A stretch of 32,000 nucleotides of DNA, taken from positions 60,001-92,000 of the forward strand of contig JAZDEL010000010.1 of the NCBI GenBank assembly GCA_043808785.1, in the 5' to 3' direction. Below, piece by piece: positions 5,738 to 32,000 of the stretch; positions within the stretch are counted from its first letter, which is position 1; each line of letters starts with the position of its first letter. The position numbers and the translations under genes were made by a program. The notes below the pieces were generated by a model. The model was given only the letters and a program-made list of their open reading frames with translations, searched no databases and was not told the DNA's origin. Source of the DNA: Candidatus Iainarchaeum sp. (GTDB lineage: Archaea > Iainarchaeota > Iainarchaeia > Iainarchaeales > JAZDEL01).

Positions 5738-5780
5738 TCAGCACCGCCGTATGCCGTCTCAAAGCGGACGAAAAACCGCA

Positions 5781-6815: not shown

Positions 6816-6886
6816 TTGAACATCCCCTGCGCGCCAAAACGCAGATAACTATGGTTTGCTAAGGTATATATTATATGCCTTCTCAG

Positions 6887-6975: not shown

Positions 6976-6998
6976 AACAGGCGTAACCGCACAGGGCA

Positions 6999-8027: not shown

Positions 8028-8073
8028 ACCATTAAAACAATTGCCCCACTAACCTTGTGCCTGTTTTTCGCCC

Positions 8074-8892: not shown

Positions 8893-8970
8893 TCTGCCAA
8901 ACCATTCCCGAAAACCAACCGCGGTTGGGTTTTTTCATTCCCCCGCAAACCAAACCCGCTTTGCTTTTTT

Positions 8971-11371: not shown

Positions 11372-11820
11372 CAGAAAACCCCCCCCGCGCAAACAGCCCT
11401 GGGGAAAAACCTCCCCCCCTCTTCCCACTGCACGAGGAACAAATCGCTTATCGGATACATTATCCTGCCGCAAAGGGATGCGCTGTCTACTCTGCAGAAA
11501 CTCTCAATATACACAACCTTTTTCCCGAACAATTTTGCGATATAGCTTATCGGCACCGCAACCCCCGCGCCAGTTGTAAGCACCATGTCAGGCCTTTCTT
11601 TCAGGAAGATGCGGAGGCTCTGCACGATATTTGCCGCGAGTTTCAGCGGGTTCCTGCCGGGGTCGGAGACAAAATGCACCATTTCCCCGCTTTTTGCAAG
11701 GCTCTCCGAATTCGGCCGCCTGAATGTTAGGAAAAAATGCTCCCTGCCCCTGTAGAATTCCTCCAATTGCATGAGTTCGCTGAGGTGCCCTCCTCCCGAG
11801 CATGCAAGGCAGATTTTCAA
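11371..11820 (-). CDS. Alg14-like glycosyltransferase membrane-anchoring subunit (MurG N-terminal-half homologue)
   Basis: 149-aa ORF. MKICLACSGGGHLSELMQL matches the Alg14 GSGGH..EM motif. The TTGAGVAVP and YIESFCRV blocks fit the Alg14/PssD family. Confidence 0.75.
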   Translation of the reverse strand: MKICLACSGGGHLSELMQLEEFYRGREHFFLTFRRPNSESLAKSGEMVHFVSDPGRNPLKLAANIVQSLRIFLKERPDMVLTTGAGVAVPISYIAKLFGKKVVYIESFCRVDSASLCGRIMYPISDLFLVQWEEGGRFFPRAVCAGGVF

Positions 11821-11829
11821 TCGTACACC

Positions 11830-12858: not shown

Positions 12859-12888
12859 TTTGCATCAACTTCGGCGGCTGCGGGTGCG

Positions 12889-17498: not shown

Positions 17499-17620
17499 GC
17501 GATTAGCAGCGCCTTGCGAGCTCCGGGCAGAAACCCAGTGCAGCACAAATCGCGAGCGGGCTTAACTTCCGGGTTCGGAATGAGACCGGGTGTTTCCCCG
17601 CTGCCATGACCGCTAATCAA
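17499..17620 (-). rRNA. rrf: 5S ribosomal RNA
   Basis: The minus strand reads GATTAGCGGTCATGGCAGCGGGGAAACACCCGGTCTCATTCCGAACCCGGAAGTTAAGCCCGCTCGCG...GCGCTGCTAATC. It contains the universal CCGAAC..GGAAGTTAAGC loop C/helix III block. The termini pair as helix I (GATTAGCGG/CTGCTAATC with one G-U). Length is about 118-122 nt. A TTTT run follows the 3' end. Confidence 0.85.
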
Positions 17621-17725: not shown

Positions 17726-18364
17726 CTACTTCTTCCCCTTTTTCGCCTTCGCAGCCTTGGGTTTCTTCGCGGGCTTCTCCCTCTTCCCTTTCCCCGCACC
17801 TTTCCCCTCCCCTTTGGCAGGCTTCTCCCTGTTGACGCCCCTTATCAGTTCCGCTGCCTTCCTGAGCCCCCTGCGCAGGAATTCCTCGCGCTTTGCGCCC
17901 GCGCAGATTAACTTTCCGTTCTTGAAAAGCAGGAGCGTGAGTTTCGGCTCGGTTATGCGCAGAATCGCCCCGGGAAACTGCTCCGGCTCGTACTCCACGT
18001 TGTCCAATTGCATCGCTGTCTTGAACAAATCAAGCGTCATGTTCAGGTTCGCCGTGGCGACAAGGTTCACGACATTGTACTCGACATTCTTCTGAATCTT
18101 TACGTCCTTCTGAATTTCATTTATTAATTTGCTCGCCTTGTAAACCGCAAGCGAAATCTCCTTTTCGCTGGAAGCGCCGGAACATATGATTTTGCCGTTC
18201 TTGAAAAGGAGCATCGAAACCTTGGGCTCCTTGAGTTTCAAAATCGCCCCGGGAAACTGCTCGGGCTCGTACTCTATGTTCGGGATTGTTACCGCCAGAT
18301 TGTACAAATCAAGGGTTGCGTGCAAATTAGCGCTCGCAACAAGGTTAACGATATTATACTGCAT
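17726..18364 (-). CDS. tbp: TATA-box binding protein with a C-terminal lysine-rich extension
   Basis: 212-aa ORF with two direct TBP repeats (NIVNLVASANL...EYEPEQFPGAILKL...LLFKNGKIICSGA and NVVNLVATANL...EYEPEQFPGAILRI...LLFKNGKLICAGA). About 36 residues of K/G/A/P-rich tail follow. Confidence 0.9.
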   Translation of the reverse strand: MQYNIVNLVASANLHATLDLYNLAVTIPNIEYEPEQFPGAILKLKEPKVSMLLFKNGKIICSGASSEKEISLAVYKASKLINEIQKDVKIQKNVEYNVVNLVATANLNMTLDLFKTAMQLDNVEYEPEQFPGAILRITEPKLTLLLFKNGKLICAGAKREEFLRRGLRKAAELIRGVNREKPAKGEGKGAGKGKREKPAKKPKAAKAKKGKK

Positions 18365-19435: not shown

Positions 19436-20065
19436 GTGAAGGCGGAAGAATACGCTATTGTGCTCGATTACCTGCCGCGCGGCAAGTCCTCCGCGCACAA
19501 GAGCGAGCCGATTGCCCAGGTTCTGGGCACGGAATACTTCACGTTCCTTGAGGTTGTTCCCAAGGAGGGCGTGGAACTCAAGGGCATGGAAAAGGTTTAT
19601 GTCGGCAAGGAGAACCGCGACAAGATAGATTTCATACGCAGGCGCATAGGTTTTTCAGACCTCACATCAAACTCGGTTTCGGAAGTGGAGAAAGCCGTTG
19701 AAATGCTTGTAAGGGAGAACGAGGCGAAGTTTGTCGCGTTCTTCAACAACGCCCAGCCCATAACCCTGAAGCGCCACCAGTTCGAACTCCTGCCTGGCCT
19801 GGGAAAGAAGCACATGCTCGCCCTGGTGCAGGAGCGCGAGAGGGAACCTTTCAAATCATACAAGGATATCGAGGAGCGCGTGCGCCTCATGCCCAACCCG
19901 GTGAAAACCCTTATAAGGCGCATAATGGAGGAACTCGAGGGAGAGGAGGAGAAGCACTACCTCTTTGCGCGCCCTCCCGCACTCGAGCGCGACCAGGGCA
20001 GGTTCGGGGATAGGGAAGGGTTCGGAGCGCGCAGGCAGTTCGTGAAGCCGGCGGAGCAGGCGTAA
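19436..20065 (+). CDS. DUF655-family protein (predicted RNA/nucleic-acid-binding, OB + HhH)
   Basis: 209-aa ORF with a GTG start. EEYAIVLDYLPRGK...AQVLG..YFTLLE and a C-terminal RHQFELLPGLGKKHM helix-hairpin-helix are typical DUF655 features. Its position between rpoF and ksgA is conserved in archaea. Confidence 0.8.
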   Translation: MKAEEYAIVLDYLPRGKSSAHKSEPIAQVLGTEYFTFLEVVPKEGVELKGMEKVYVGKENRDKIDFIRRRIGFSDLTSNSVSEVEKAVEMLVRENEAKFVAFFNNAQPITLKRHQFELLPGLGKKHMLALVQEREREPFKSYKDIEERVRLMPNPVKTLIRRIMEELEGEEEKHYLFARPPALERDQGRFGDREGFGARRQFVKPAEQA

Positions 20066-20164
20066 TTCCTGCCACTTCTGCAAAGCGGAAAACAATTAAG
20101 CGCCCTTCATTGCCCCCGCTTCCCCGCTGAAAACAATTAAAATACCGCCGCCACATATTCCCAT

Positions 20165-20998
20165 ATGCCCTCCCTTTTTCAGGAACTCAACAGCCTCATG
20201 GTGAAGCACGGCTTCAAGCCCAACAGGCGGATGGGGCAGAATTTCATTATAGAGGAGAAAATAATCGGGCGCATGCTCGAGGCGGCGCACCTGCATGCAG
20301 GGGACACGGTTCTCGAAATCGGTGCGGGCACCGGCTTCCTCACGCGCGAACTGCTGAAGAACGCGAAGGTTGTTGCCGTGGAGCTGGACGAAACGCTCTG
20401 TGCGGTGCTCTCCGAAACCCTCGGTCAGAACCCGAACTTCACGCTTATCTGCGGCGATTTCCTCAATGCGCAGCTGCCTCCCTTTGCCAAAATCGTTTCC
20501 CTCCCTCCCTATGCGATTTCCTCGGGCCTCATTTACCGCCTCTCGGAACTCGAATTCGAATTTGCCCTTCTCGTTTTCCAGCGCGAATTTGCGAACAAGC
20601 TCACTGCCGAACCCGGCTTCATGGAATACGGCACAATTTCCGTTGCCGCGAATTATTTCTTCGAGCCGCAAATAATAATCGGCAACATTTCTCCCGCCTG
20701 CTTTTTTCCCAAGCCGAATTCCTTCTCCTCGCTCGTGAAGTTAACGCCGAAAAAGCGCTTCGGAAAGGCGCGCAACGAAAAAATGTTCCTCAAGTTCGTG
20801 AAATCCGTTTTCAGGTACAAGAACAAGAACCTCAGGAACGCGCTGGACAAGGCTTACCCGTTCTTTGCGAAGGAATGCAAAATCGGCGCGGAAAAGTTCT
20901 CCGCGCTTGTGGACTCCCTTGAACACAAGGACGAAAAGGTGTGCTTCCTGCCCGTGGGGAGCTTTGTGGAAATTTCGAATAAATTGTTCCCCAAATGA
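20165..20998 (+). CDS. rsmA: 16S rRNA (adenine-N6,N6)-dimethyltransferase KsgA/RsmA (Dim1 homologue)
   Basis: 277-aa ORF. RMGQNFIIEEKII, SAM motif VLEIGAGTGFLTREL and SLPPYAISS (NLPY-type motif) are diagnostic. Confidence 0.85.
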   Translation: MPSLFQELNSLMVKHGFKPNRRMGQNFIIEEKIIGRMLEAAHLHAGDTVLEIGAGTGFLTRELLKNAKVVAVELDETLCAVLSETLGQNPNFTLICGDFLNAQLPPFAKIVSLPPYAISSGLIYRLSELEFEFALLVFQREFANKLTAEPGFMEYGTISVAANYFFEPQIIIGNISPACFFPKPNSFSSLVKLTPKKRFGKARNEKMFLKFVKSVFRYKNKNLRNALDKAYPFFAKECKIGAEKFSALVDSLEHKDEKVCFLPVGSFVEISNKLFPK

Positions 20999-21058
20999 AC
21001 CCGCAAAAAAATCAGGCGAACCTTTCGGGCACAGTTTTCCGGGTTTCCGCAGGCTTGC

Positions 21059-22576
21059 TTACGCGAACCTTTCCAGCACCATCTTCTCCATCTCCACCGG
21101 CTGGTTTACCTTTGCATAACTTACCGCAATCTCGAGGCGCCTCTTGTTTGTTGCGTAAATCTCGAAAAGCAGCGCGTTCTTCTGTATCTGCAGGTCCTCC
21201 CTCACTTTTAGGAGGACGCCCGCCTTCTTGTCCGCGGGCGCGCCCGCGAGCCTGGCAATGGTGTTCAGGGTTTTAACATTTACCTTCTTTATCTCCCCCG
21301 CCGCCTGCGCGGTGATGGCTTCCTTGTATTTCCCGATTTCTATGTCCTCGGACCTGAAAATGGTGCCGTGCTGCGCCTTTATTATCTCCTTCATTTTCGC
21401 GAGCGCCTTTCCGCTTGTGAGTATCTCCTTTGCCTTTGCATAGCCCTTGCCAACAGGTGCGCCACCTGCCATCTCAATGAGAACTCCCGCAAGTTCGCAG
21501 CTTTTATCCGCAAGGTTGTCAAACCTTTTCCCCTCGAGGATTTCCATAAGCCATTTCGCCTCAAGCGCGGGGCCGAAAGCCATTCCGCAAGGCTCTGTTC
21601 CGTCCGTTAGTATCGCCTCTACTTTTATTCCCATTGCCTTCCCGACCTCGAGGAACTTCAGTGCCATGCTCTCGGCCTGCTCCTTTGATTTCACCTTCAT
21701 GTCCGGCCCCACAGGCAGGTCAATCACAACAAATTTCGCCCCCACGGATGCCTTTTTCGCCATTACCGAGGCCACAACCTGCCCTTCGGGATCCAGAAGC
21801 AGGGGGTGCTCTATCTTGATTATTTTATCGTCCGCAGGCGCGAGCTCGACAGCCCCGCCCCATGCAATAACCCCCCCGACCTTCTCGGTTATCTGCTTTA
21901 TCTCCGCGAGGGGAAGTGAAACATTGCACATCACTTCCATCGCATCCGCGGTTCCCGCTGCCGAGGTTATCGAGCGCGAGGAAGTTTTCGGCATATTGTA
22001 GCCCGCAGCCGCGATTATGGGCACAATCGCCATTGTTGTCCTGCCGTTCAGCCCCCCTATGCTGTGCTTGTCAACACACAATCCCTTTATTTCAAGTGTT
22101 TTGCCGTTCTCCACAAGCGCCTTTGTCATTGAAACCGATTCATCGAGATCGAAGCCGTTTACGTAAACCGCGGAAACGAACGCGGCAGCCTCCACTTCGC
22201 TCAGCCTGTTCTCCGCAAGGTCATTGACAATCTCCTTTATCTCCGCAAACTTCAGTTTCCTGCCGTCCAGTTTCGCCTTTATGTATTCCACGCTCTTCGG
22301 CTTGTCCACAACAGTAACCTCGACCCTCTTTCCGCCCTTCGTGCCGAGGAACCTGCTCACGTCCCTGAACATCCCGATTTCGTCCTTCTTCACCATTGTT
22401 TCCGTGAAATCGACAACCGTGTTCATGCACTTCCCGTTCTTGGGGTTTGCAATAGAAACCCTGTCCAGCGGCAGTATTCCGAGCTCCTTCGCGGTCTGGC
22501 TGTTCATTATGGAGACCATCTTTCCGGAGGCTATGTCAATGCTCCTCACGCGCATGATTTTCGTGTACTGCTCCAT
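21059..22576 (-). CDS. deoA: AMP phosphorylase (archaeal thymidine-phosphorylase family, DeoA-type)
   Basis: About 505 aa. It has an archaeal-type N-terminal extension domain (RVRSIDIASGKMVSIMNSQTAKELGILPLDRVSI). The glycosyl-transferase family 3 core follows (DKHSIGG, TSSRSITSAAGTAD). Start placed at ATG 22576 rather than GTG 22588, because the TTAAATAC element (22607-22614) then sits about 30 nt upstream. Confidence 0.8.
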   Translation of the reverse strand: MEQYTKIMRVRSIDIASGKMVSIMNSQTAKELGILPLDRVSIANPKNGKCMNTVVDFTETMVKKDEIGMFRDVSRFLGTKGGKRVEVTVVDKPKSVEYIKAKLDGRKLKFAEIKEIVNDLAENRLSEVEAAAFVSAVYVNGFDLDESVSMTKALVENGKTLEIKGLCVDKHSIGGLNGRTTMAIVPIIAAAGYNMPKTSSRSITSAAGTADAMEVMCNVSLPLAEIKQITEKVGGVIAWGGAVELAPADDKIIKIEHPLLLDPEGQVVASVMAKKASVGAKFVVIDLPVGPDMKVKSKEQAESMALKFLEVGKAMGIKVEAILTDGTEPCGMAFGPALEAKWLMEILEGKRFDNLADKSCELAGVLIEMAGGAPVGKGYAKAKEILTSGKALAKMKEIIKAQHGTIFRSEDIEIGKYKEAITAQAAGEIKKVNVKTLNTIARLAGAPADKKAGVLLKVREDLQIQKNALLFEIYATNKRRLEIAVSYAKVNQPVEMEKMVLERFA

Positions 22577-22659
22577 TTTCCCGCCCACAATAGAACGGTT
22601 TTTTTGTATTTAACCTTAATGGTTTGCCCCTTGGTGTGCGCAAAAAATAACAAAAACAA

Positions 22660-22682
22660 AAACCGCGGGTTTCCCGCGGTTT
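22660..22682 (-). terminator. Perfect 10-bp hairpin followed (on the minus strand) by a T-rich tract
   Basis: AAACCGCGGG-TTT-CCCGCGGTTT. On the minus strand it is followed by TTTTGTTTTTGTTATTTTTT (22630-22659). It lies about 57 nt downstream of the small ORF stop at 22740 and upstream of the deoA promoter. Confidence 0.45.
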
Positions 22683-22739
22683 GCGGAAACTGCGAACCAC
22701 GGGTTTGTAAGGAGGGTTGCAAGGCGCGGTTAATCACAA

Positions 22740-22886
22740 CTACTTCCTGAAATACCATGCCGCCAGAATCGCAATCACCGCGACCAGAATAAGCCATGAA
22801 TAAATATTCCAGTCAATCATTGCAGTAAAAAGCAGAAGAACCACCGCCGCAGTCGTCAGGATGTGGTCTTTTGTAAAGTTGGCCAT
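22740..22886 (-). CDS. Small hypothetical membrane protein (48 aa, two hydrophobic segments)
   Basis: This ORF is not in the track because it is under 60 aa. I translated it by hand: MANFTKDHILTTAAVVLLLFTAMIDWNIYSWLILVAVIAILAAWYFRK. It has an ATG start and TAG stop, sits in an otherwise empty 520-nt gap, and has a terminator-like hairpin downstream. Confidence 0.35.
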   Translation of the reverse strand: MANFTKDHILTTAAVVLLLFTAMIDWNIYSWLILVAVIAILAAWYFRK

Positions 22887-23109
22887 GCACACTTATATGG
22901 CTTGGCGGAATTTAAATTTTGCGGCAGTGGCGGTTTCCCGCGGTTTGGCAAAGCCCCGCACAGCCACGCACACAGCGTGATTTTCGCGAAGCGAAAATCC
23001 TTCTTTTCCCCAGGCTTTTCTTGCAAAGAAAAGGCTGCCCGAAACCTTTATATTAAGAAACTTCGTTAATTACCGTAAATATGGGTTTTTTATAAAGCGG
23101 GGCGGAAGC

Positions 23110-23562
23110 ATGAAAGGCAGTTTCAGGATATTGGCAAATGAAAAGAACGTAATCACGGAGCGCGGCGTGAGGGTTTTCATAATGGAGCGCCTCCTTAATT
23201 CCCCGTTCGAAAGGGGCACTGTGCTGAACATTGACGAGAAAACCGTAGAGGTAAGGATGGAAGGCACGAAAAAGCAGATTCTCGAATTTAAAGCCGAGCT
23301 TGAAAAAGAACTTATTGCCAAGTACGGAAACCCGGTTATTTTGTTCACGCCTTTGCAGTCAAATCGCGCGCTGCAACTTCCCGCGCTCATGAGGTCGGGG
23401 CAGGCGCTGGTTCTCGGGCAGCTGAGCAAGGGCGTTGATGTGCAGTTGAAGATTCTGGAGACGCTTACGGGGCAGAAAACAGAATTAGGCAGCCTGCCAG
23501 AAAGGCTGGGAAAAGTCATAGTGGAATACTTAAAATCTGAGCGTCCATCTGCAAAATCTTAA
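23110..23562 (+). CDS. Hypothetical protein (weak acylphosphatase-like alpha/beta pattern in the N-terminal half)
   Basis: 150-aa ORF with balanced composition, unlike its Ser/Cys-rich antisense partner 23070..23519. TATA-like TTTTTTATAAAG lies at 23085-23096. GVRVFI...RGTVLN.DEKTVEVRMEGTKKQILEF loosely resembles acylphosphatase-like domains; this is not confirmed. Confidence 0.5.
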   Translation: MKGSFRILANEKNVITERGVRVFIMERLLNSPFERGTVLNIDEKTVEVRMEGTKKQILEFKAELEKELIAKYGNPVILFTPLQSNRALQLPALMRSGQALVLGQLSKGVDVQLKILETLTGQKTELGSLPERLGKVIVEYLKSERPSAKS

Positions 23563-23563
23563 T

Positions 23564-24277
23564 TCACAATTCCTTCCCCAGTTCTTCCGCCGCCTTCTTC
23601 ATGTCCTTCGCGGCGTAAATCCCGCGCCCGACAATCGCGTGCCAGCTTTCCCCCGCAGCCTTTGCCCCTTCGCTCAGCGAGCCGCCCTGCGCAACAAGGC
23701 CGGGGGAGTAGAGTACAGGTTTTACACCTTTTGCCTCAAGCAGTTCGCGGTACTCGCGGATTTTCTCGGGCTTGTTTCCTGGAACGACAAAATCCTTCAC
23801 GCCGAGTTCAGCGGCAATTTCGTAAATTTTCTTCGGCGCGGCTGGCGCGATGAAACCGCCGTCGCTTTCCAAAAACTTCGGGTGGGTCATTTCCCCCCCG
23901 ACAATTACCCCGAGCCCCGCCTTTTGGCACGCCTTTATCCACGCCCTCTCGGTTTCGGGCCCCGTAAGGGGGAACAAAATCACGGCATCCACGCCCGCCT
24001 TTTTGCAGACGCCCGCAAATTTCTCAGCAACATCGGGAATATCAGTCGCAGCTTTCTGGTGGTCGTAAATTATCGGCTTTTTAGTGTGCTTCCTCGCCGC
24101 TTTCACAACCGCACCCAACCCGTACGCAAGCGCGAGTTCAAACCCGACCTTGTACCCGCCGATTTTTTTTATGTTTGCGGTTTCCTTGACAAGTTTCTCA
24201 AACTGTGCAAGGGTAGGGACGTCGCAGGCAGGGATTATGCTGCGCTCAATGCTGATTATGCTTTTTGCAGCGCACAT
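23564..24277 (-). CDS. pyrF: Orotidine 5'-phosphate decarboxylase
   Basis: ORF 23564..24304 trimmed to ATG 24277, which overlaps the pyrE stop as TAATG. DHQKAATDIPDV (DxKxxDIP), SPGLVAQGG and IVGRGIY are the OMP decarboxylase family blocks. Confidence 0.75.
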   Translation of the reverse strand: MCAAKSIISIERSIIPACDVPTLAQFEKLVKETANIKKIGGYKVGFELALAYGLGAVVKAARKHTKKPIIYDHQKAATDIPDVAEKFAGVCKKAGVDAVILFPLTGPETERAWIKACQKAGLGVIVGGEMTHPKFLESDGGFIAPAAPKKIYEIAAELGVKDFVVPGNKPEKIREYRELLEAKGVKPVLYSPGLVAQGGSLSEGAKAAGESWHAIVGRGIYAAKDMKKAAEELGKEL

Positions 24278-24921
24278 TATTTCCCCTCCTCCCCCTCCTG
24301 CCACTTCTGCGGGTTTTTGAAGTACTCGGCTGCGCTTTTGTACTCCTCCCCCGAAAGTTTCCCCGCCTTGTGCAGTTCCTCTAAGAGTTCCCCCACAGCG
24401 AGAACTGAATGCAGTTTGTAACCCCGCTCCGCTAACTGTTCCTTCCCCCCCTGCCCCCTGTCGACAAGCACGATAACATCCTTCACAACAAGCCCCGCTC
24501 CCTTGAGCACTTCAATAGCCTCGAACTTGCTTTCCGCAGTGGTTATCAAATCGTCGCAGAGCAGGATCGTTTCCCCTTTTTTGAAAACACCCTCTATCCC
24601 CTGCCCCGTGCCGTAATCCTTCCTCTCCTTGCGCGGGTAAATCATGGGCACGTTCGCCTCGAGGCTGAACGCGGTGGCAATCGGCAGCGCGGCATAAGGA
24701 ACCCCCGCAACCCTGTCGAACTTAAGTTTGTTTTTTTTCGCGAGCGCATCGAATTCCTTTGCAACCAGCCCCAAAGTTTTCGGGTATGAAACAAGCAGGC
24801 GCAGGTCGAGGTATATCGGGCTTTTCAAACCCGATTTAAGGGTGAACAAACCAAACTTCACGGCTCCTATTTTGTGCAATTCGATGCAGAGGTTTTTTTT
24901 GTTGTCCTTAACCATACACAA
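24277..24921 (-). CDS. pyrE: Orotate phosphoribosyltransferase
   Basis: 214-aa ORF. VKFGLFTLKSGLKSPIYLDLR and the PRPP loop ILLCDDLITTAES, then VLVDRGQGG, resemble the UMP-synthase-type OPRTase lineage. Confidence 0.85.
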   Translation of the reverse strand: MCMVKDNKKNLCIELHKIGAVKFGLFTLKSGLKSPIYLDLRLLVSYPKTLGLVAKEFDALAKKNKLKFDRVAGVPYAALPIATAFSLEANVPMIYPRKERKDYGTGQGIEGVFKKGETILLCDDLITTAESKFEAIEVLKGAGLVVKDVIVLVDRGQGGKEQLAERGYKLHSVLAVGELLEELHKAGKLSGEEYKSAAEYFKNPQKWQEGEEGK

Positions 24922-26095
24922 CTTCCCCCTTCACTATAGTCTTCACCACAACGCCTTTTATCCTTTTCCCGTCGAAGGGGGTCCAGCCGCACTTGCTCAT
25001 CTGCTCCGAGTTCCTTATCTCGTGCTCCCTGCCCATGTCGACAACAGCCAAATCCGCGTCAAATCCCGTTCTTATTTCCCCCTTCCCCCGCAAACCAAAA
25101 ATCCTTGCAGGGTTTCTGGAGGACACTTCAACCAGCTTGCGCATGGTTATTTTCTTTTGGTTCACGGCGTCAATCATAAGCGGCAGCATTGTCTGCACGC
25201 CCGGCATTCCGTTCGCGCCCTTTGCCTTGTCCCCGCGCGTGTGCGGGGCGTGGTCTGAGGATAGGCAGTCGATTGTGCCCTCGGCGAGCGCCTCCCACAG
25301 CGCCTTCGCATCCGCGCGCGTGCGCAGGGGAGGGCTGACAGATGAAAAATTCCCAAGCCTTTCGGAATCATCCTCCGTGAGTAAGAGATGGTGCGGGCAA
25401 ACTTCACACGTGAGTAAGCCCTTCGCGCTTTTTTTCTCCCTCACGATTGCCCTTGTCCCGTCCTTCGTGGAAACGTGGCACACATGCAACTTATTTCCCA
25501 CCTCGCGCCTGACCTCGAGCGCCCTTTCAATTACCCCCTTCTCCTCCCCCCTGTCCTCCGCATGCACACAAACAACAAACCCGCGCGCCTTCGCGATTTC
25601 GAAAATTTCCTTCAGTTTTTTTCCATCGCCGACAAAAAGGTCGCCGTATTGCGAACCCAAATAAACCTTGAACGAGTTCACGCCCTGAACTTTTTTCAGT
25701 TCCGCAATGTTCCTCTCCGTAGCGCCAAAGTGCATTCCGAACCCTATCCAGGAACCCGCGGATGCGATTTTCATTTTTTCATCAAGTGCCTGCTGCGTTG
25801 TTGTCGCGGGCTTCGTGTTCGGCATGTCGAAAACCTTGGCAACCCCTCCCGCAGCTGCAGCCGCGCTCCCCGTTTTCCAGTCCTCCTTGTATTCAAATCC
25901 AGGCGTGCGAAAGTGAACATGCGCATCTATTGCAGCGGGAATTACCGCCATGCCCGCGCAGTTAACCGTGCGCGCTGCGGGGGTTTTTATTTTCCCCTCG
26001 CTTGCAGCAGTGATTTTCCCGCCATCAATCCCTATCCACATCCTCTGCAATTTTCCCCTGTAGAAAGCCCTGCAGTTTTCAAGGATTAAGTCCAT
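24908..26095 (-). CDS. pyrC: Dihydroorotase
   Basis: 395-aa ORF with the amidohydrolase metal motif IDAHVHFRTPG, later HAED and SDHAPH blocks, and a DADLAVVD tail. Its 3' end overlaps the pyrE start, giving a pyrC-pyrE-pyrF operon. Confidence 0.85.
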   Translation of the reverse strand: MDLILENCRAFYRGKLQRMWIGIDGGKITAASEGKIKTPAARTVNCAGMAVIPAAIDAHVHFRTPGFEYKEDWKTGSAAAAAGGVAKVFDMPNTKPATTTQQALDEKMKIASAGSWIGFGMHFGATERNIAELKKVQGVNSFKVYLGSQYGDLFVGDGKKLKEIFEIAKARGFVVCVHAEDRGEEKGVIERALEVRREVGNKLHVCHVSTKDGTRAIVREKKSAKGLLTCEVCPHHLLLTEDDSERLGNFSSVSPPLRTRADAKALWEALAEGTIDCLSSDHAPHTRGDKAKGANGMPGVQTMLPLMIDAVNQKKITMRKLVEVSSRNPARIFGLRGKGEIRTGFDADLAVVDMGREHEIRNSEQMSKCGWTPFDGKRIKGVVVKTIVKGEVVYG

Positions 26096-26148
26096 GTGAC
26101 CGCCTTTTTACTATTGATTTAAGGATATATATAATATGGGCTGGTGCA
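26025..26148. repeat. Direct repeat copy A (pyrC first about 24 codons + 5' UTR + promoter)
   Basis: Hand alignment to 27091-27213 (offset 1066 nt). About 100 nt are near-identical with 5 substitutions, then the promoter part has small indels. The two + strand shadow ORFs in the track end in the same peptide (...LQFSPVESPAVFKD), which confirms the duplication independently. Confidence 0.9.
26125..26137 (-). promoter_or_regulatory. TATA-rich putative pyrC promoter element
   Basis: An ATATATATAATAT run lies about 30-40 nt upstream of the pyrC ATG (26095). The same element is duplicated in degenerate form at about 27193-27203 in repeat copy B. Confidence 0.4.
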
Positions 26149-26247
26149 CTTGTTTCGGGCAATATTTCGGGCGGATGCCGGAGCCGCAGATGGCGTTCGG
26201 GCGAGGTGGCGGAGTCGGCTGGCTGGCCCGGATGAACGAACAAAGCA

Positions 26248-26844
26248 TTATTCCCTGAAATCCTTTATCGGGAATATGAGGTTAACGTATGTAGCGCCAT
26301 CCTGCTTAATCAGCGTGTTCTCCCTGAAGTTGAACTTCTTTTTGTACCACTCCGCCCTGTGCGGGTATGAGTCAAGGGTAATGTACATCCCCCCCACAAG
26401 CGGGACAATCTTCTTCACTATAAAGCCCATTGCATAGCAAACCAAAAAAGGGCCGACAACGCCCTTGTTCTGGCAAGCCTTGTCCACAGCCAGCCGCCCT
26501 ATTTTGATTGCGGGAATCTTGCCGTAATCCTTCCCGCGCCTGCGCCGGGTTTCCCTGTCTATCGTGATTGCATCCTGCGACAAAGCAAAGAAGCCCATGA
26601 CTTTTTTGCCGCCTTTTTGGACCGCCACATATGTGCGGTTCCAGCCCTCTTCTTTCTGGGCAAGCGCGTCGTTTTTTATGAAATCGTTCAGGTCCCTGTC
26701 CCCGGCATGCCCGGAAAAGCAGTCGAACGCCGACACGTCATGCTCTTCTGTAAACGGCTCCACTACGAGGCAGGAGGCGTGAAGTTCTTCGCTCATCGTC
26801 AACGGCGAGGCTATCTCTCGTGGCTTTCGTAAGTCGCTATGCAT
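26248..26844 (-). CDS. GNAT-family N-acetyltransferase toxin (TacT/KacT/AtaT-like)
   Basis: The blocks FDCFSGH..DLNDFIKNDALAQKEEGWNRTYVAV, VMGFFALSQDAI, IPAIKIGRLAVDKACQNKGVVG follow the pattern of DUF1778-associated GNAT toxins (FDCG...L..FL, TYV, GYY.LS, IGRLAVD..QG.G). The start is ambiguous: 26844, which overlaps the upstream small gene, or ATG 26796. Confidence 0.7.
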   Translation of the reverse strand: MHSDLRKPREIASPLTMSEELHASCLVVEPFTEEHDVSAFDCFSGHAGDRDLNDFIKNDALAQKEEGWNRTYVAVQKGGKKVMGFFALSQDAITIDRETRRRRGKDYGKIPAIKIGRLAVDKACQNKGVVGPFLVCYAMGFIVKKIVPLVGGMYITLDSYPHRAEWYKKKFNFRENTLIKQDGATYVNLIFPIKDFRE

Positions 26845-26957
26845 GACTGCAGTATCCGCACGTCCTTTTCAGTCATGCCCTTTCCCGTATGCAAATCCAG
26901 AAACCTTTCGGCATCCTTCCCCTTCAGTTCGGGGGTCATAATAATCGGCTTTGCCAT
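26811..26957 (-). CDS. Putative cognate antitoxin (48-aa small protein immediately upstream of the GNAT toxin)
   Basis: ORF 26811..27056 trimmed to ATG 26957 (MAKPIIMTPELKGKDAERFLDLHTGKGMTEKDVRILQSCIATYESHER). AGGTGA lies 6 nt upstream and a TATA-rich run sits at about 26975-26990. The position and size fit an antitoxin. The sequence is not an obvious DUF1778/RHH match by eye. Confidence 0.45.
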   Translation of the reverse strand: MAKPIIMTPELKGKDAERFLDLHTGKGMTEKDVRILQSCIATYESHER

Positions 26958-27083
26958 GCATTTCACCTTTATACGTATATATCGCCGGTTAGTGTATTTA
27001 TTCTTTACTGTGGGGCGCCGGTGATTCCCCTGTGCCATAAATGCCACATGCACCACTATATCGGAATTTCCCTTCCCGGTTTT

Positions 27084-27161
27084 TCACGCGTCAATCCCTA
27101 TCCACATCTTCTGCAATTTTCCCCTGTAGAAAGCCCTGCAGTTTTCAAGGATTAAATCCAT
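27084..27161 (-). pseudogene. Truncated pyrC 5' remnant (25 codons then TGA)
   Basis: The minus strand translates to MDLILENCRAFYRGKLQKMWIGIDA*, against MDLILENCRAFYRGKLQRMWIGIDGGK... for the intact gene. Weaker similarity with a roughly 12-nt deletion seems to continue to about 27064. Confidence 0.8.
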
Positions 27162-27213
27162 AATGCCGCCTTTTTACTATTGATTTAAGGAACTATATAA
27201 ATGGGGATGGTGC
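27091..27213. repeat. Direct repeat copy B (decayed duplicate of the pyrC 5' end + promoter)
   Basis: See copy A. TCAATCCCTATCCACATC[T]TCTGCAATTTTCCCCTGTAGAAAGCCCTGCAGTTTTCAAGGATTAA... is shared by both copies. Confidence 0.9.
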
Positions 27214-27261
27214 GGGGGGTTGGAGGGGCGGGTGCAACATGATTGCACAGCCAACACAGCG

Positions 27262-27489
27262 CTATTGCCCGGTTATTCTAAACTGTAGTTCTTTCAGGAA
27301 GCGCTTCAATCTGTGAAAAGGGCCCATTTTAATCGGCTGAGATTTTAAAATATTTTCGATCCGCTGACGCTCCTTAGCCTCTTCACGTGCCTTATCAATT
27401 TTTGAGGCGTCCTCGGGGCTAAGCTTGCCGTTATTTCTGCCAGTATCTACAAAATCAACTGTTGCTCCGCTCCTCCTTATATTAAACAC
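27262..27489 (-). CDS. Hypothetical small protein (75 aa)
   Basis: The GTG start at 27489 is preceded by GAGGAG (27495-27500). The central segment is charged and helical (SPEDASKIDKAREEAKERQRIENIL). I recognise no family. GC is lower than in the core genes. Confidence 0.35.
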   Translation of the reverse strand: MFNIRRSGATVDFVDTGRNNGKLSPEDASKIDKAREEAKERQRIENILKSQPIKMGPFHRLKRFLKELQFRITGQ

Positions 27490-27558
27490 CAGAACTCCTC
27501 ATACTAATTGCCGTGCAATAAGCTTTTTACGTGTTTCCTCCATATACTTTTCGTTTAT

Positions 27559-28299
27559 ATGCGCCGAAAAAGCGGGAGAAATTGGAAAACGCGGCACGGG
27601 GCATGGAACCCCCAGCGGCACGGAAACCAGCCCCAAGATACGCCGGCATCCGCGAGCCAGCTTTTCCGCAGATACAGGAAATTCATAGCGCCAATCGGAA
27701 TAATCCTGCTGATAATGCTCCAATACCTTCCCGAATATGCTTTCCCTGCCTGGATTCTGGAGAATGGGTTCCTTGCTTCGGTTCTTGCCTCCTTTGCCTT
27801 CACCTCGCTTAACGGCATGCTGTTTTTGGCTGTTTTATTGATAACCGCATGGTTTGCATATAAGTCCTGGCTGTTAAGGATACGGTTCCTGAGGGCAAGG
27901 AACCCCCTCCTGAAAAAGCTGGTTATTGTGTTCATGGCGCTGATTTTAATAAGCAGCATAAAGGCGGATTCCGCCCCCGGCTGGATTGCGGGCTGGCTTT
28001 TGTTCTTTGCATCGGCTTACTTCTGCCTTGCCCTGTTCTGGCTTGCCCTAAAGTGGATAGACAACCTTGACCTGAGTTCCGACCTCACAATCTGGCTCCT
28101 GAGGATTGGCGGCGCAATACTCGCCATGTTCGGGCTTTTTTCGCTGCTTTTCGGGACGGTTGTTTCGGTTATTTCTTTCTCGTTCACAAATTCGATGCTT
28201 TCATTGATTCCCCCTCTCATCGGGGCGTTAATCCTGCTCCTTGGCCTGTTCGGCATCTTCCGCGCAAACAGAAGGCATGCGATGGTTAGGGTTTGGTGA
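27559..28299 (+). CDS. Hypothetical multi-pass membrane protein
   Basis: ORF 27508..28299. At least 5 hydrophobic segments follow a basic N-terminal stretch. Start uncertain: ATG 27559 or ATG 27715. No recognisable domain. Confidence 0.5.
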   Translation: MRRKSGRNWKTRHGAWNPQRHGNQPQDTPASASQLFRRYRKFIAPIGIILLIMLQYLPEYAFPAWILENGFLASVLASFAFTSLNGMLFLAVLLITAWFAYKSWLLRIRFLRARNPLLKKLVIVFMALILISSIKADSAPGWIAGWLLFFASAYFCLALFWLALKWIDNLDLSSDLTIWLLRIGGAILAMFGLFSLLFGTVVSVISFSFTNSMLSLIPPLIGALILLLGLFGIFRANRRHAMVRVW

Positions 28300-28431
28300 G
28301 CGAGAAAACAGTGAGCATTTACTAGATAACGCCGAAAGGGAGCGGCGTGATGAAGAAGATTAGGGTGATGTAGTGCGGACCTGCTCTGGCGGGCAAATAT
28401 AGTGGCATGAACTATTTTTGAGTATGAGTGC

Positions 28432-29148
28432 TTAATCAGGTTTTGACGTTAAGAACTTTGCCCCTCTAAAGTTTTTGGCAGAGATTTTAGTAAGGGCGAT
28501 CCCAAACCATATAAAAAGCAAAGCAACCAAACTCAACAACAAAACTTCTATCTCAGTCGCTTTAATTATGAAAAATGCTGCCACTATTGAAAGGAACAAA
28601 ATTACTGAAAAAGACAAAGTTCCCACAAAGAACCACCAAGCTTTAACTAAGATGACCCATGCATTGTGCAGAACGCGGAAATTTTTTATGGTTTGAGGGA
28701 TTATAAAAAAATAAACTAGGATTACAATGCTTAATAGAAACGCCGAATAAAATAAAACAAATGGCGGAATCTGCGCCATACCGGATAGCAAATTTTCATT
28801 TAGATTTAATGCCGCTAAAACGAAGGCCAAGTCCACGATAAGGAATGCATATGAAAACGTAAAAAACAGCCCAAGTAGTAAAGCAGCCAAAATGATGGGG
28901 ACACTCAGAAATAGAGGCCCAACCACATTATCATAGCTTGAATCCAAGTGCAAATCAAAATTTGTGTTGCGGCCTATGCCGCTATATGGTGTCTTTTTTA
29001 AATAGTAGATTATCGCATATCCTCCAAGTAAGACTAATGCAGTAAAATAGGGCAAAATATCTAATATGTTAGGGATTTTAGAAATGTAGTCCCATGCGAA
29101 AATTATCTTAAATGTTTCAAGGAACCCAAACCAATCGGTCCAAACCAT
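28432..29148 (-). CDS. Hypothetical multi-pass membrane protein (about 6 TM), low-GC
   Basis: 238-aa ORF, strongly hydrophobic and rich in Phe/Ile/Leu, with AT-rich codon usage unlike the core genes. It is divergent from the NTPase gene across a 160-nt AT-rich spacer. Confidence 0.6.
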   Translation of the reverse strand: MVWTDWFGFLETFKIIFAWDYISKIPNILDILPYFTALVLLGGYAIIYYLKKTPYSGIGRNTNFDLHLDSSYDNVVGPLFLSVPIILAALLLGLFFTFSYAFLIVDLAFVLAALNLNENLLSGMAQIPPFVLFYSAFLLSIVILVYFFIIPQTIKNFRVLHNAWVILVKAWWFFVGTLSFSVILFLSIVAAFFIIKATEIEVLLLSLVALLFIWFGIALTKISAKNFRGAKFLTSKPD

Positions 29149-29310
29149 ACTGGATTTTGCAGGTAAACGGTTTAAAATAGGCTATTGAAGAGCGTTGGAA
29201 GCATGTGTTCCTCATATGGTCCACCGGAAATGCGGTCTAAGAACATTTTTAAGTAATCGCTTGCAAGTAGTTATGGTATGCATAGGTGGCAACAACGATA
29301 GTTGGTCGAG

Positions 29311-31563
29311 ATGGATGAAGATATTGTCTTAACTCTAAAAAACGATTGGGATTACCCGCCACATTATGAAAAACAACAAGGTCATTTTATTGGGCGCAAA
29401 GAAGAGCTTGAAAACTTAGTGGATAATTTATCAAGAAAAAATAGTGGCTCTATTTTGATAGCAGGGGATAGGGGGGTAGGTAAAACTGCCCTTGTATACA
29501 AAGCGTTGCAAGAAGTCAAAAAGAGTAAGGATAGGTCTATTTTCATAATCCTCAATGCATCTCAACTGGAGATGGCGTGTGAGGCTGACGGCACAAGTGA
29601 CTTGAAAGAAAAAATAATAAAAAATCTAATCAGGAGGCTTTATGCCATAATGCGAGACGAGAAGGATCTCAAAGACGTCTTCCCCTTTATCGAAATGCTC
29701 TATAGAAAAGTAAGGTTTAAAGAAGAGACCGTAACAATGGTAAGAAACATTAGACGAGAGGAATCTGAAACAGAATCGGTTGAATACGAAAAACAACTTA
29801 AACTGCCGGTGGAATACACAGTAAGTATTGGGTCAAGTCTGGCGGCATTGTTCTTAATTCTGAATCCACTTACCCCGAATGTAGCAATTAACGCAATACT
29901 GCCAATAGCAACGGCAAGTGTTGGTCCGTTTGCGTTTCTGTATGCTCGGAAATATCAAAAGACAAAGTCAGCAAAGAAATCACAAGCCGCGAATGCTGAG
30001 CAATACTATGAATTAGACGATAATATTGGAAATCTCGAATTTGACTTGGAACAAGTACTTGAGAGAGTGCATTCCAAGGGCTACAAAGTGGTTTTTGTAA
30101 TTGATGAGTTAGACAAAATAGATAACCAAAATGTCACAATAGGTGCAATAAAAAGTTTCAAAAATTTATTCAATCTCTCATCCGCAATTTTTGTCCTGAT
30201 TGCAGGGCGGGACACGTTTGATAGGATTCAAGCTGGTAAAGGGCCAAGGACCCCAGACTACACACTTTTTACGCACAAGATATTTTTAAAGCGGCCAACA
30301 TTCTGGGATATTGAGAGTTTTGTGGATGAGATAATAGCAAAGCCAGACATGGCAAAGCTCAAACAAAACGACAAATATAAAGAATTCAGAAATTTTCTTT
30401 CTTTTGAAGCAAAAACTGACTTTTTTGAGTTGTATGCCATACTCCGAGACTACATCAAATTTGATAGGAGCGGCTCTACCCTTGCAATACCTAGATTAAC
30501 GACTAAGGAATTGACCAAAGCAAGGCTGCAAAAAGCAATGGGTCAAGTATTTGGTCGGAGCGGGTGGGGCGTGCCCTCCAAGTGGCATATGGATGAAGAA
30601 ATACTAACAAGCCTATATCTCTTAATAGATGGGCTTGCTGAGAAGGATAAAGGTGACGAGTTTGAAGATGACTTTGGAAATCATCCTACGGATGGTGAAA
30701 ATGCACCCATAAAGCGGGATTTGTGCAAATACTTAGAGCGGCTCGGTGCCATCGAAAAAATCAGTGTTCGGGAAGAGGTAGTTGGCAATAAACCTAAAAA
30801 AATTACGAAGTATCGATGGATGGGCTTCTGCAGTAAGGTTCCTTCTGAGATACGGGAAATAATGATGGAGCATGAGATGACATTTATCGATAGGGCTAGT
30901 TCGCTCAAAAAAATGGTTGTGGAGATAGGTAACCTTTACAAAGTAGCTAACTCTGAAAGAACTTATTCAATGAACGGCTTTCAAAGCAACTCTCGAGAGA
31001 TACTGACGCTTGTTCAAAAACTGACGAATAGAAACTTGGTGCCAATCTTTGATCAGATAACGCCTATAGAGCAAGACCTTAATACTAAATTTCCAAAATT
31101 GCATAAACGTGAGGAAGTAGAGCAACACATAAAGAATCTTGAGGGGGAGATTAATGCCCTTAAAGAGTACTCCCGAATCGCTCTAGAAAATATTATTAAA
31201 GAAAAAGTCGCAGATATGGAATCTTCCCAACTCCAGACAAATGTGGGATTGTTTAGTGCCATTCAAGGATTAAGAAATAACGTAGTACATGGGGGCATAT
31301 TGCACTCAGTAATTTTCAAAAAAGATCTTTCTAAACAATTATTAATGTCTGTAAATATGTCCTCTGATCTAATAAACCAGAATAAACAATTAATACGCCA
31401 AAATTCAAAAACATTAAAAATCGTAAATATTCAAACGGACCCCTCTTTTGACTATAAAGATATGAAACATTTGGGAGGTGGTTTTTCAAGCGTAAAAGTG
31501 ACAGATAATTTTGAAGAACTTGGGCGGGTAATCAAGAAACTAATGCACTGGTTTTTATCATAA
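29311..31563 (+). CDS. KAP-like P-loop NTPase with an intramolecular TM hairpin and a C-terminal HEPN-like (RNxxxH) region
   Basis: The track ORF starts at TTG 29302; I prefer ATG 29311. Walker A GDRGVGKT is at 29464-29487. Two hydrophobic helices lie at 29818-29946. Walker B VVFVIDELDK is at 30088-30117. A coiled-coil-like segment follows, then LRNNVVHGG (RNNVVH at 31273-31290). The codon usage is low-GC. Confidence 0.8.
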   Translation: MDEDIVLTLKNDWDYPPHYEKQQGHFIGRKEELENLVDNLSRKNSGSILIAGDRGVGKTALVYKALQEVKKSKDRSIFIILNASQLEMACEADGTSDLKEKIIKNLIRRLYAIMRDEKDLKDVFPFIEMLYRKVRFKEETVTMVRNIRREESETESVEYEKQLKLPVEYTVSIGSSLAALFLILNPLTPNVAINAILPIATASVGPFAFLYARKYQKTKSAKKSQAANAEQYYELDDNIGNLEFDLEQVLERVHSKGYKVVFVIDELDKIDNQNVTIGAIKSFKNLFNLSSAIFVLIAGRDTFDRIQAGKGPRTPDYTLFTHKIFLKRPTFWDIESFVDEIIAKPDMAKLKQNDKYKEFRNFLSFEAKTDFFELYAILRDYIKFDRSGSTLAIPRLTTKELTKARLQKAMGQVFGRSGWGVPSKWHMDEEILTSLYLLIDGLAEKDKGDEFEDDFGNHPTDGENAPIKRDLCKYLERLGAIEKISVREEVVGNKPKKITKYRWMGFCSKVPSEIREIMMEHEMTFIDRASSLKKMVVEIGNLYKVANSERTYSMNGFQSNSREILTLVQKLTNRNLVPIFDQITPIEQDLNTKFPKLHKREEVEQHIKNLEGEINALKEYSRIALENIIKEKVADMESSQLQTNVGLFSAIQGLRNNVVHGGILHSVIFKKDLSKQLLMSVNMSSDLINQNKQLIRQNSKTLKIVNIQTDPSFDYKDMKHLGGGFSSVKVTDNFEELGRVIKKLMHWFLS

Positions 31564-31626
31564 TTGCTTTAAAAATTGCGCAGGATCGTAGGATTGATTT
31601 ATGAATCAGATAAAACACTTTCAGGA

Positions 31627-32000
31627 GTGTCGGCTGCCGTGAACCGCAACAATATCGCAGATTGGATAATCGTAATTTTCACATTTTTGGCACTCATAAC
31701 TTTAGTTTATCTCGGAGAAGCAGGAGAACTTGACGTTTTCGCAGCGCTGGTCATGCTGGCGAGTGTGATTTTCAGCATTTTGCTCTCCGCAATCGCCGCA
31801 GGCGGTGCCCTCTGGCTGATTTACCTTATTTTTAAAGAATTGGAAAACGTATCTATAGAAAAACCGCCACAAATCTGGAAGGCTTTTTTCAGATTAATTA
31901 GGCCTAATGCTAATGTTGAGGGCCAATTGCCCCTAACGGATTTGCTTATTGCCCTTATTTTTTTGTATGTGCTCGCAATGGCGCTTACCGAAATTTTCTT
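31627..32000 (+). CDS. Hypothetical membrane protein, 3'-truncated by the window end
   Basis: This frame is not in the track because it has no stop in the window. It is open from the stop at 31570 to 32000. GTG 31627 is preceded by AGGAG; TTG 31576/31594 are alternative starts. My hand translation is VSAAVNRNNIADWIIVIFTFLALITLVYLGEAGELDVFAALVMLASVIFSILLSAIAAGGALWLIYLIFKEL..., with at least 3 hydrophobic segments. Confidence 0.4.
   Translation, partial: MSAAVNRNNIADWIIVIFTFLALITLVYLGEAGELDVFAALVMLASVIFSILLSAIAAGGALWLIYLIFKELENVSIEKPPQIWKAFFRLIRPNANVEGQLPLTDLLIALIFLYVLAMALTEIF

Follow-up and report, generated by a model that had tools for sequence, protein, structure and literature searches.

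What is the AT-rich DNA that fills the last few kilobases of a 32-kb stretch of an archaeal genome, and what might the one large gene within it do? The stretch (hereafter the window, meaning all 32,000 nucleotides analysed: positions 60,001–92,000 of contig JAZDEL010000010.1) comes from a Candidatus Iainarchaeum archaeon. A preliminary description, made from the letters and a list of their open reading frames (ORFs), had proposed a horizontally acquired accessory or defence island composed entirely of hypothetical genes, starting at 27,214 next to a repeat of the beginning of pyrC and running out of the window on the right. The block from about 28,396 onwards is probably a recently acquired, AT-rich accessory cassette, in which a KAP-family P-loop NTPase most likely has a stand-alone role in defence against viruses or other mobile elements. 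The KAP gene is taken to be the functional core of the cassette, which is still unameliorated in composition.

The AT-rich block (28,396–32,000, no strand assigned) is real and very strong, far beyond chance, and its left edge lies at about 28,395; its right edge is past the end of the window. The baseline for G+C content (GC) was set by 27 non-overlapping 1-kb segments left of 27,000, which have a GC of 0.536 ± 0.021 (range 0.487–0.566). The four 1-kb segments to the right of 28,395 have values of 0.371–0.395, which correspond to z-scores of −6.7 to −7.8 against this baseline. In 1-kb sliding segments GC is 0.48–0.57 over the first 27 kb and 0.37–0.40 from 28,500 to the end of the window, while at a resolution of 200 nucleotides it is 0.44–0.55 up to 28,399 and 0.35–0.41 thereafter. 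A two-segment likelihood model of positions 20,000–32,000 places the change-point at 28,395, with a gain of 94 nats and GC values of 0.534 before it and 0.385 after it. Tetranucleotide usage changes with it: the distance to the profile of positions 1–26,000 is 0.048 for 28,396–32,000, compared with 0.010–0.019 for all 3.6-kb segments ending before 28,800. Neither measure is uniform over the window, and the sharp drop in GC that had been noticed from hand counts is thus borne out, as is the continuation of low GC to the last base. The proposed starting point of 27,214 is not. Between that position and 28,395 (no strand assigned) lies a transition zone of mostly host-like DNA with a GC of 0.498 (z = −1.8).

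The different codon usage ascribed to this DNA is also upheld. GC at third codon positions (GC3) is 0.696 ± 0.034 in host genes (n = 15; overall range 0.63–0.75), whereas it is 0.389 in the 238-residue gene at 28,432–29,148 and 0.377 in the KAP gene. Under a codon-usage model of the host, the log-odds of these two genes are −0.335 and −0.36, respectively; those of host genes range from +0.11 to +0.29. The AT-rich signal therefore sits at synonymous sites and is no amino-acid effect, since GC3, codon log-odds and tetranucleotide distance all depart from the host. This bears directly on the idea that the region is native and that its AT-richness reflects a local mutational or selective bias, arising from membrane amino acids or low expression. 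Membrane proteins rich in Phe, Ile and Leu do use AT-rich codons, and GC at second codon positions is low in the genes of the block (0.30–0.32). The contrast is nevertheless greatest at third positions, where it amounts to 0.38 versus 0.70 (z about −9). A neighbouring gene for a six-helix membrane protein has a GC3 of 0.64, the host's own membrane genes for the LPG-synthase-TM-like protein, AglB and the PHO4 transporter have values of 0.68–0.72, and the KAP protein, which is mostly soluble, is as AT-rich in its gene as the membrane proteins are in theirs. Furthermore, relatives are lacking altogether for two of the three genes in the block, and in the closest genomes for the third as well. A native origin of this kind is most improbable.

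A second alternative is that the break is an artefact of assembly, namely a chimeric join near 28,300–28,430. The change is abrupt, being complete within about 100 nucleotides, and the data come from an uncultured organism; both points speak for an artefact. Yet the break falls exactly inside a 132-nucleotide spacer that separates two intact convergent ORFs (stop codons ending at 28,299 and 28,432); where genes are so dense, a join made at random would hit such a position only by luck. The two orphan genes of the block also resemble no other organism's genes. A chimera is considered very unlikely, and a further observation on this point, made in independent assemblies of other organisms, is described below.

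Three genes make up the visible part of the block: one for an orphan membrane protein, one for the KAP NTPase and one for a second orphan membrane protein, which runs off the window. Contrary to the preliminary description, not every gene of the proposed island is hypothetical, for the large central ORF encodes a KAP-family P-loop NTPase (PF07693). In the database gene call this gene starts at an ATG at 29,311 and extends to 31,563 on the plus strand, encoding 750 residues (protein P0001); a TTG at 29,302 is a possible alternative start that would give 753 residues. The protein matches the Pfam profile PF07693 (KAP_NTPase) at 41.3 bits, where 20 is the cut-off; residues 36–310 align with positions 8–199 of the 293-position model. 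AAA_16 scores as well, at 42.7 bits. The Walker A motif, GDRGVGKT, occupies residues 52–59 (29,464–29,487, plus strand), and the Walker B motif, VFVIDELDK, residues 261–269 (30,091–30,117, plus strand). In 46 homologues, G52, R54, G55, G57, K58 and T59 of the former and D265, E266, D268 and K269 of the latter are invariant.

KAP NTPases are marked by two or four transmembrane helices set into the NTPase domain in the interval that separates the two Walker motifs. In the window protein a two-helix hydrophobic hairpin, LPVEYTVSIGSSLAALFLILNPLTPNVAINAILPIATASVGPFAFLYA, is predicted from the translation and its hydrophobicity at residues about 165–212 (29,803–29,946, plus strand), and hydrophobic segments are found at this position in nearly all of the 46 homologues. 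A stretch rich in Lys and Arg follows the second helix and the loop connecting the helices is short, which suggests that both halves of the NTPase are cytoplasmic. Taken together, the profile match, the Walker motifs, the predicted inserted helices and the patchy distribution of the protein place it in PF07693. The family was reportedly described by Aravind, Iyer, Leipe and Koonin in 2004. The window protein resembles it in the above-cut-off profile match, the inserted two-helix hairpin, the predicted cytoplasmic topology, the patchy distribution and the association with mobile DNA. It differs in that the motif F-x-G-R-x-x-E-L ahead of the P-loop and the arrangement of lid and winged helix resemble those of AAA_16, Orc/Cdc6 or STAND proteins.

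An AlphaFold2 model of the protein, built with 46 homologues, is confident (predicted local distance difference test score, pLDDT, 85.7; predicted template-modelling score, pTM, 0.70). In order along the chain, it comprises the interrupted P-loop core, a helical lid, a winged-helix-like beta-hairpin module (about 450–503), a helical bundle (520–632) and an alpha/beta domain (633–750). The region of the predicted hairpin is helical in the model, with helices at 124–163, 167–184 and 191–234 forming a stalk and the hairpin. When the whole model was compared with the Protein Data Bank (PDB) using Foldseek, Orc1/Cdc6 and subunits of the origin recognition complex came first, with E-values of 1e-4 to 1e-3. 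These were followed by CED-4, Apaf-1, plant NLR proteins, Clp ATPases and the RdrA ring of RADAR, with low global template-modelling (TM) scores throughout. A profile search of PDB sequences with the same protein gave matches to the P-loop only.

The C-terminal half of the protein, roughly 400 residues, matches no Pfam family. Its last 246 residues (505–750; 30,823–31,560, plus strand), comprising the helical bundle and the alpha/beta domain, were modelled separately with a pLDDT of 91.4. The top PDB matches of this part in Foldseek are all restriction endonucleases, namely Ecl18kI, Kpn2I, EcoT38I, BbvCI and MspJI, with Ecl18kI matching at an E-value of 3e-3, a probability of 0.91 and a TM-score of 0.28. 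Against a library of viral structures the domain gave matches with E-values of at least 0.014 only, to scattered proteins annotated as RecB, Mrr or PD-(D/E)xK. A canonical nuclease active site was considered for this domain and rejected: the conserved polar residues instead form a motif on a single strand, D672-x-S674-(K/R)-Q676 (31,324–31,338, plus strand), which is 89–97% conserved. A nuclease-like fold is plausible for the modelled domain, with catalysis only putative.

Where such proteins occur, and beside which genes, provides much of the case for a role in defence. A word-indexed search retrieved 85 relatives, most of them 740–770 residues long, alignable from end to end and carrying PF07693; the best are 47%, 47%, 45% and 43% identical to the window protein. 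Named relatives come from Thermoleophilia, Elusimicrobia, Anaerolineales, Dehalococcoidia and Thermotoga, and others lie on low-GC and archaea-like contigs, the two closest homologues being on contigs of 30–31% GC. Nine independent homologue contexts were read, and genes for mobility or defence are present in eight of them. In one (L001) a DDE transposase lies directly downstream of the KAP homologue, and in two others a recombinase lies directly upstream, a tyrosine integrase in L002 and a large serine recombinase in L165, from Thermotoga. An integrase, a DNA methyltransferase and PrimPol are found near the homologue of L004; an integrase, an IS240-type transposase, MazE and HsdR near that of L166/L167. 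In Anaerolineales (L172–L174) the gene lies between a pair formed by NurA and HerA and another formed by DpnI and an AbiEii-like gene. In two further lineages the gene forms part of a type I restriction–modification (R-M) locus with the order hsdR-KAP-hsdS-hsdM and gaps of 2–43 nucleotides, once in Elusimicrobia (L168/L169; 5,208–13,014 in L168) and once in L175/L176 (5,187–13,194 in L175). The KAP proteins of these two lineages (P0022 and P0028) are 60% identical to each other.

PrrC/RloC-type guards are embedded in type I R-M loci. The insertion into R-M operons, with the KAP gene placed between hsdR and hsdS in parallel to prrC, weighs especially in favour of defence. P0022 and P0028 lie, like the guards, between hsdR and hsdS-hsdM, and the proteins share with PrrC and RloC an N-terminal NTPase and a C-terminal domain that is putatively nuclease-like. 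Unlike PrrC and RloC, however, they have a KAP rather than an ABC-like NTPase and no anticodon-nuclease motif, and the copy in the window is not beside R-M genes.

The neighbours of the KAP gene in the window have no counterpart in any of 18 homologue loci. A multi-gene system with conserved partners was rejected on the same survey, as no neighbour recurs in the 18 loci; the conserved unit is the single KAP gene. What does recur is its composition. GC is lower in the KAP gene than in the rest of the locus in all nine loci compared, by 0.02 to 0.19. In L172 the gene has a GC3 of 0.30 against 0.63–0.73 in its flanks, and the AT-rich islet in which it lies, at about 7,600–10,400 (approximately 2.8 kb), holds the KAP gene and one small ORF but no integrase. 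In L177, from Thermoleophilia, GC3 is 0.34 against 0.70–0.79, and an AT-rich tract at about 4,500–10,400 ends right after the gene. The three Anaerolineales loci are independent assemblies with an identical context, the protein being found on 24 contigs, and L177 and L178 show a similar pattern. Sharp AT-rich KAP islets in GC-rich genomes are a biological feature of the subfamily. Because such islets, equally sharp, recur in independent assemblies (L172–L174 and L177/L178), the break in the window is unlikely to be a mere chimeric join. Both repeated recent transfer and selection for AT-rich sequence could account for the recurrent AT-richness.

KAP-type proteins have been tied to phage defence elsewhere. 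EF_KAP and three metagenomic KAP-fusion proteins are antiphage proteins, and protection by the fusions required both Walker B and the C-terminal region (PLoS Biol 2026, PMC13552941). In common with these, the window gene is a single gene for a KAP NTPase with a predicted membrane anchor and a large C-terminal region that lacks a recognised domain, and recombinases adjoin members of both groups. The NTPase motifs and the C-terminal region, the very parts needed for protection by the fusions, are conserved in the window subfamily. The two differ in layout, EF_KAP being described with one helix at the N terminus, a second in the KAP domain and a tail of 322 residues, whereas the window protein has its hairpin in the domain and a tail of roughly 400 residues. 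The fusions come from gut Firmicutes; the window protein is archaeal and is likened to them by architecture alone.

Other members act against phages in different settings. T7 is excluded by PifA, a KAP member encoded on the F plasmid (PMC13001434), and in the qatABCD system the KAP NTPase QatA assembles into heptamers or octamers (PMC13279940). The window protein shares with both the KAP-type NTPase that is used against phages there. PifA reportedly has no transmembrane helices (PMC13001434), in contrast to the hairpin predicted here, and QatA belongs to an operon of four genes and works with QueC-like and TatD proteins, whereas no such partners lie beside the window gene and PADLOC gives no Qat match. 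A further case is Tmn, a transmembrane P-loop NTPase that acts as a single-gene defence and is assigned to YobI by one paper and to KAP by another (PMC13001434, PMC11846954). Tmn forms a decameric ring, its ATP turnover is stimulated by a phage protein, and it exports ions with plasmolysis of the cell (PMC13001434, PMC11846954). The window protein is predicted to resemble it in being a membrane-anchored NTPase with two transmembrane helices inserted in the P-loop domain, so that Tmn is a possible mechanistic template. It differs from Tmn in that PADLOC gives no Tmn match and the cytosolic solenoid arms of Tmn are not seen in the model.

The mobile and R-M neighbourhoods, the patchy distribution together with the foreign composition, and the precedent of the KAP fusions, PifA, QatA and Tmn are the reasons for favouring a role in defence. 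If the protein is active in this way in its host, the trigger, any oligomerisation and the chemistry of the effector might, by analogy, be as follows. The hairpin between Walker A and Walker B would anchor the NTPase at the cytoplasmic face of the membrane. Detection of a cue of infection would fall to the C-terminal half or take place at the membrane itself. Binding and hydrolysis of NTP could then drive a conformational or oligomeric switch, in which the protein would probably act as an oligomer. As output, the C-terminal domain might attack nucleic acid; alternatively, as with Tmn or PifA, the membrane might be perturbed. Replication of the virus would be halted as a result.

Several points weigh against this reading. 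Homologues are absent from the IMG/VR, INPHARED/GenBank phage and PLSDB plasmid collections that were searched, and the only PHROG matches are to the P-loop; an origin in a virus or plasmid was rejected for the same reason. The PADLOC matches are of P-loop length only (PDC-S27 over residues 28–71 with an E-value of 8e-8, mad8 and PDC-S01), and the NCBIfam model DS41_1_antiphage reaches 26.7 bits, far short of its cut-off of 370, over the NTPase part only. With matches to PADLOC v2 and NCBIfam thus confined to the P-loop and below threshold, assignment to a named defence system was rejected. KAP-based defence has been tested in bacteria only, with proteins whose C-terminal regions are different. 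The restriction-enzyme fold matches are weak, with TM-scores of 0.25–0.35 and root-mean-square deviations above 12 Å, and no canonical PD-(D/E)xK motif is conserved in residues 633–750. The L177 context contains no recognisable defence gene. In the visible 3.6 kb of the block there is no integrase, tRNA gene or att-like repeat, and the right end lies past the window. Finally, the host has no close relative in the genome or metagenome collections, which precludes an empty-site comparison with sister genomes.

Some of these points would also fit a protein that has nothing to do with defence, acting instead as a membrane-associated, NTP-dependent signalling or assembly factor within a cassette for some membrane function. 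All three genes of the block encode membrane-associated proteins, no curated defence model was matched, and L177 has its context without defence genes. KAP NTPases are said to have been proposed originally, by Aravind and colleagues in 2004, as regulators of the assembly of membrane-associated complexes, and the eukaryotic members are reportedly signalling scaffolds. This alternative is nevertheless judged unlikely. Genes for mobility or defence accompany the homologues in eight of nine contexts, including the hsdR-hsdS insertion in two lineages, and a patchy distribution combined with foreign composition is typical of genes involved in conflict. The flanking membrane genes, moreover, are never conserved with the KAP gene, and KAP fusions have experimental support as defence proteins (PMC13552941).

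The membrane proteins on either side of the NTPase raise a further question, that of the size of the acquired DNA. On the left, divergent from the KAP gene, lies the gene for an orphan membrane protein of 238 residues (P0086; 28,432–29,148, minus strand) with five hydrophobic helices, seen as five Kyte–Doolittle segments. A search of 5.8 billion proteins retrieved only P0086 itself, and it has no Pfam, NCBIfam, PADLOC or PHROG match. The intergenic region between the two divergent genes (29,149–29,310, no strand assigned) presumably holds the promoters of both; a scan for sigma-70 promoters and terminators remained at background level, and its model is a bacterial one that is not meaningful for an archaeon. 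On the right, 12 nucleotides past the KAP stop codon, begins a second orphan membrane protein of 238 residues (P0087). Its first 141 codons fall within the window (31,576–32,000, plus strand), its full length is taken from the protein database and its predicted end is at about 32,292. It has no relatives in a search of the protein database and no precomputed Pfam domain; its GC3 is intermediate (0.447), with codon log-odds of −0.196. These two proteins and the 246-residue product of the six-helix gene left of the break (P0088) are similar in length (238–246 residues), and the idea that they are paralogues was rejected, as they show no mutual similarity. Hydrophobic segments bear out the statement of the preliminary description that four of the five ORFs encode multi-pass membrane proteins. 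The orphan membrane genes flanking the KAP gene are co-located foreign genes, and nothing ties them functionally to the NTPase.

The block might accordingly form the left-hand end of something larger that is integrated here, such as a provirus, plasmid, casposon-like element or integrase-borne island, with the KAP gene as cargo. The integrase, the att site and the right end of such an element would lie beyond 32,000. This is compatible with an acquired defence cassette and differs from it in scale. The AT-rich composition runs to the last base of the window, and there are three consecutive foreign genes, two of them for orphan membrane proteins of a kind common in archaeal mobile elements. Homologues lie beside integrases or recombinases in L002, L004, L165 and L166, and a KAP ATPase has been reported as cargo of an archaeal casposon (PMC4046053). 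On the other hand, the visible 3.6 kb contain no mobility gene, tRNA gene or terminal repeat, the islet of L172 is only about 2.8 kb long and has no integrase, GC3 is already up to 0.447 in the third gene, P0087, and the PHROG matches are limited to the P-loop. A larger element is a possibility, somewhat less likely than not.

The same signatures allow the block to be compared with classical genomic islands. As in genomic and defence islands, its base composition (GC), use of codons and oligonucleotide signature are deviant, its cargo is accessory, and there is a toxin-antitoxin cassette in the vicinity. Unlike them, it shows no integrase, tRNA target or flanking direct repeats in the visible part, only 3.6 kb of it can be seen, and the toxin-antitoxin cassette is separate and native. 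There is no tRNA gene in the 32-kb window, the ORFs scanned across 26,248–31,563 have no match to a Pfam integrase or recombinase family, and the segments 28,250–28,480 and 31,500–32,000 share no repeat of 10 nucleotides or more. It had been suggested that any integrase or tRNA gene lies outside the window, and this agrees with what was found. The search of the flanks for such genes and att repeats that had been recommended yielded none in the visible part, the right flank being past the window.

The proposal that one island begins at the toxin-antitoxin cassette and its repeat junction was not sustained. The repeat is a direct one of 134 nucleotides, with copies at 26,014–26,147 and 27,080–27,213 that are 87% identical, and it is a copy of the TATA-box promoter and first 24 codons of pyrC. 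The distal copy keeps its ATG and encodes a 25-codon pseudo-N-terminus of pyrC that ends at a TGA. Between the copies lies a 0.9-kb cassette of two genes, one for a GCN5-related N-acetyltransferase (GNAT) toxin and one, a small ORF, upstream of it and overlapping the start of the toxin gene. The 198-residue toxin has no Pfam or NCBIfam match. It resembles solved GNAT toxins that acetylate tRNA, including TacT, AtaT and KacT; the matched PDB structures are 6g96 (TacT, E-value 2.5e-11), 7ak8, 6ajn and 5zgn (KacT). The label of a GNAT toxin-antitoxin cassette (TacT/AtaT/KacT-like) is justified by this resemblance. As its composition is native (GC 0.52, GC3 0.67), the cassette is an insertion separate from the AT-rich block. 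It has its own 134-nucleotide repeats and is followed by about 1.2 kb of mostly host-like DNA. Of the horizontally acquired accessory or defence island, then, the foreign composition and the patchy KAP family with its mobile and defence contexts stand, while a single island reaching from the repeat does not.

Two genes lie in the stretch between the repeat and the break. The first is a 75-codon ORF (27,262–27,489, minus strand), which is indeed AT-rich, as had been stated (GC 0.434, GC3 0.447). Among family models, only a PHROG without known function matches it, and weakly (E-value 7.5e-4). The ORF might be non-coding, or a leftover from an earlier insertion. The second is the six-helix membrane gene P0088 (246 residues; 27,559–28,299, plus strand), which with a GC3 of 0.64 is host-like. 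Its family is archaeal and rare, comprising 48 relatives when 1.8 billion proteins are reduced to representatives at 50% identity. In six of ten longer relatives scanned there are N-terminal zinc fingers of the AN1 type, and two of these six also have fingers of the C2H2 type. Upstream of pyrC, accessory genes that differ in age seem to form a mosaic rather than a single compositional unit, and ‘variable region’ is a fair name for this stretch.

The left 26 kb of the window hold the genes of the host core. Positions 1–14,847 are a large archaeal N-glycosylation cluster that ends in AglB/STT3. It contains NAD-dependent sugar epimerases and dehydratases, glycosyltransferases of the GT2, GT4 and GT28 types, a methyltransferase and an LPG-synthase-TM-like protein, besides AglB/STT3; nearly all of its genes are on the minus strand and GC skew is strongly negative. 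The remaining genes include a PHO4 transporter with a PhoU-like partner, the TATA-binding protein (17,726–18,364), DUF655, the KsgA dimethylase, pyrF, pyrE and pyrC, and a 509-residue protein with family 3 glycosyl transferase domains (Pfam Glycos_trans_3N and Glycos_transf_3). The gene for the TATA-binding protein has a 5S rRNA gene (17,501–17,617, minus strand; Rfam RF00001, 80.3 bits) close to it on the downstream side, the only Rfam match in the window.

The host belongs to the DPANN archaea, is related to Candidatus Iainarchaeum and has no close sequenced relative. The nearest genome, a metagenome-assembled genome of Candidatus Iainarchaeum (L005), has a pyrC that is 56% identical and a pyrE that is 77% identical to those of the window. 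The pyrC of L006 is 42% identical, and the best metagenome match of pyrC is 44%. Gene order shared with L005, L006 and L057 is limited to pyrC and pyrE, and the genes upstream of pyrC differ even between L005 and L006. Synteny with relatives, put forward as a means of defining the ends of the island, was uninformative: the nearest genomes are too distant, and the two common genes leave the ends undefined.

Beyond the window, it is possible, though a good deal less secure than the acquired defence cassette itself, that the KAP proteins of about 750 residues form a distinct, uncharacterised subfamily representing a new antiviral system of bacteria and archaea. It would be marked by the N-terminal motif L-K-x-D-W-D, the intramembrane hairpin, the winged helix, the helical bundle and a restriction-endonuclease-like domain with D-x-S-(K/R)-Q. 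Such a system would consist of a single membrane-anchored protein, travel as an AT-rich one-gene cassette and serve in some R-M operons as a back-up similar to PrrC. If so, the window would hold one of the first such candidates for innate immunity in a DPANN archaeon.

For the annotation of this genome the boundary is set at 28,395, the large ‘hypothetical’ ORF becomes a KAP NTPase, and the toxin-antitoxin cassette becomes a separate, native insertion. The KAP gene of the window is a credible but fairly ordinary acquired defence candidate. For the family, the analysis defines a conserved 750-residue subfamily of about 85 members with a recurring AT-rich signature and, occasionally, a PrrC-like position in R-M loci, within a class that was shown experimentally to stop phages, in bacteria, only in 2026. 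If the proposed role is correct, an archaeon of the DPANN group with a small genome would recently have gained a stand-alone, membrane-bound NTPase, and this class of defence would be extended to the archaea.

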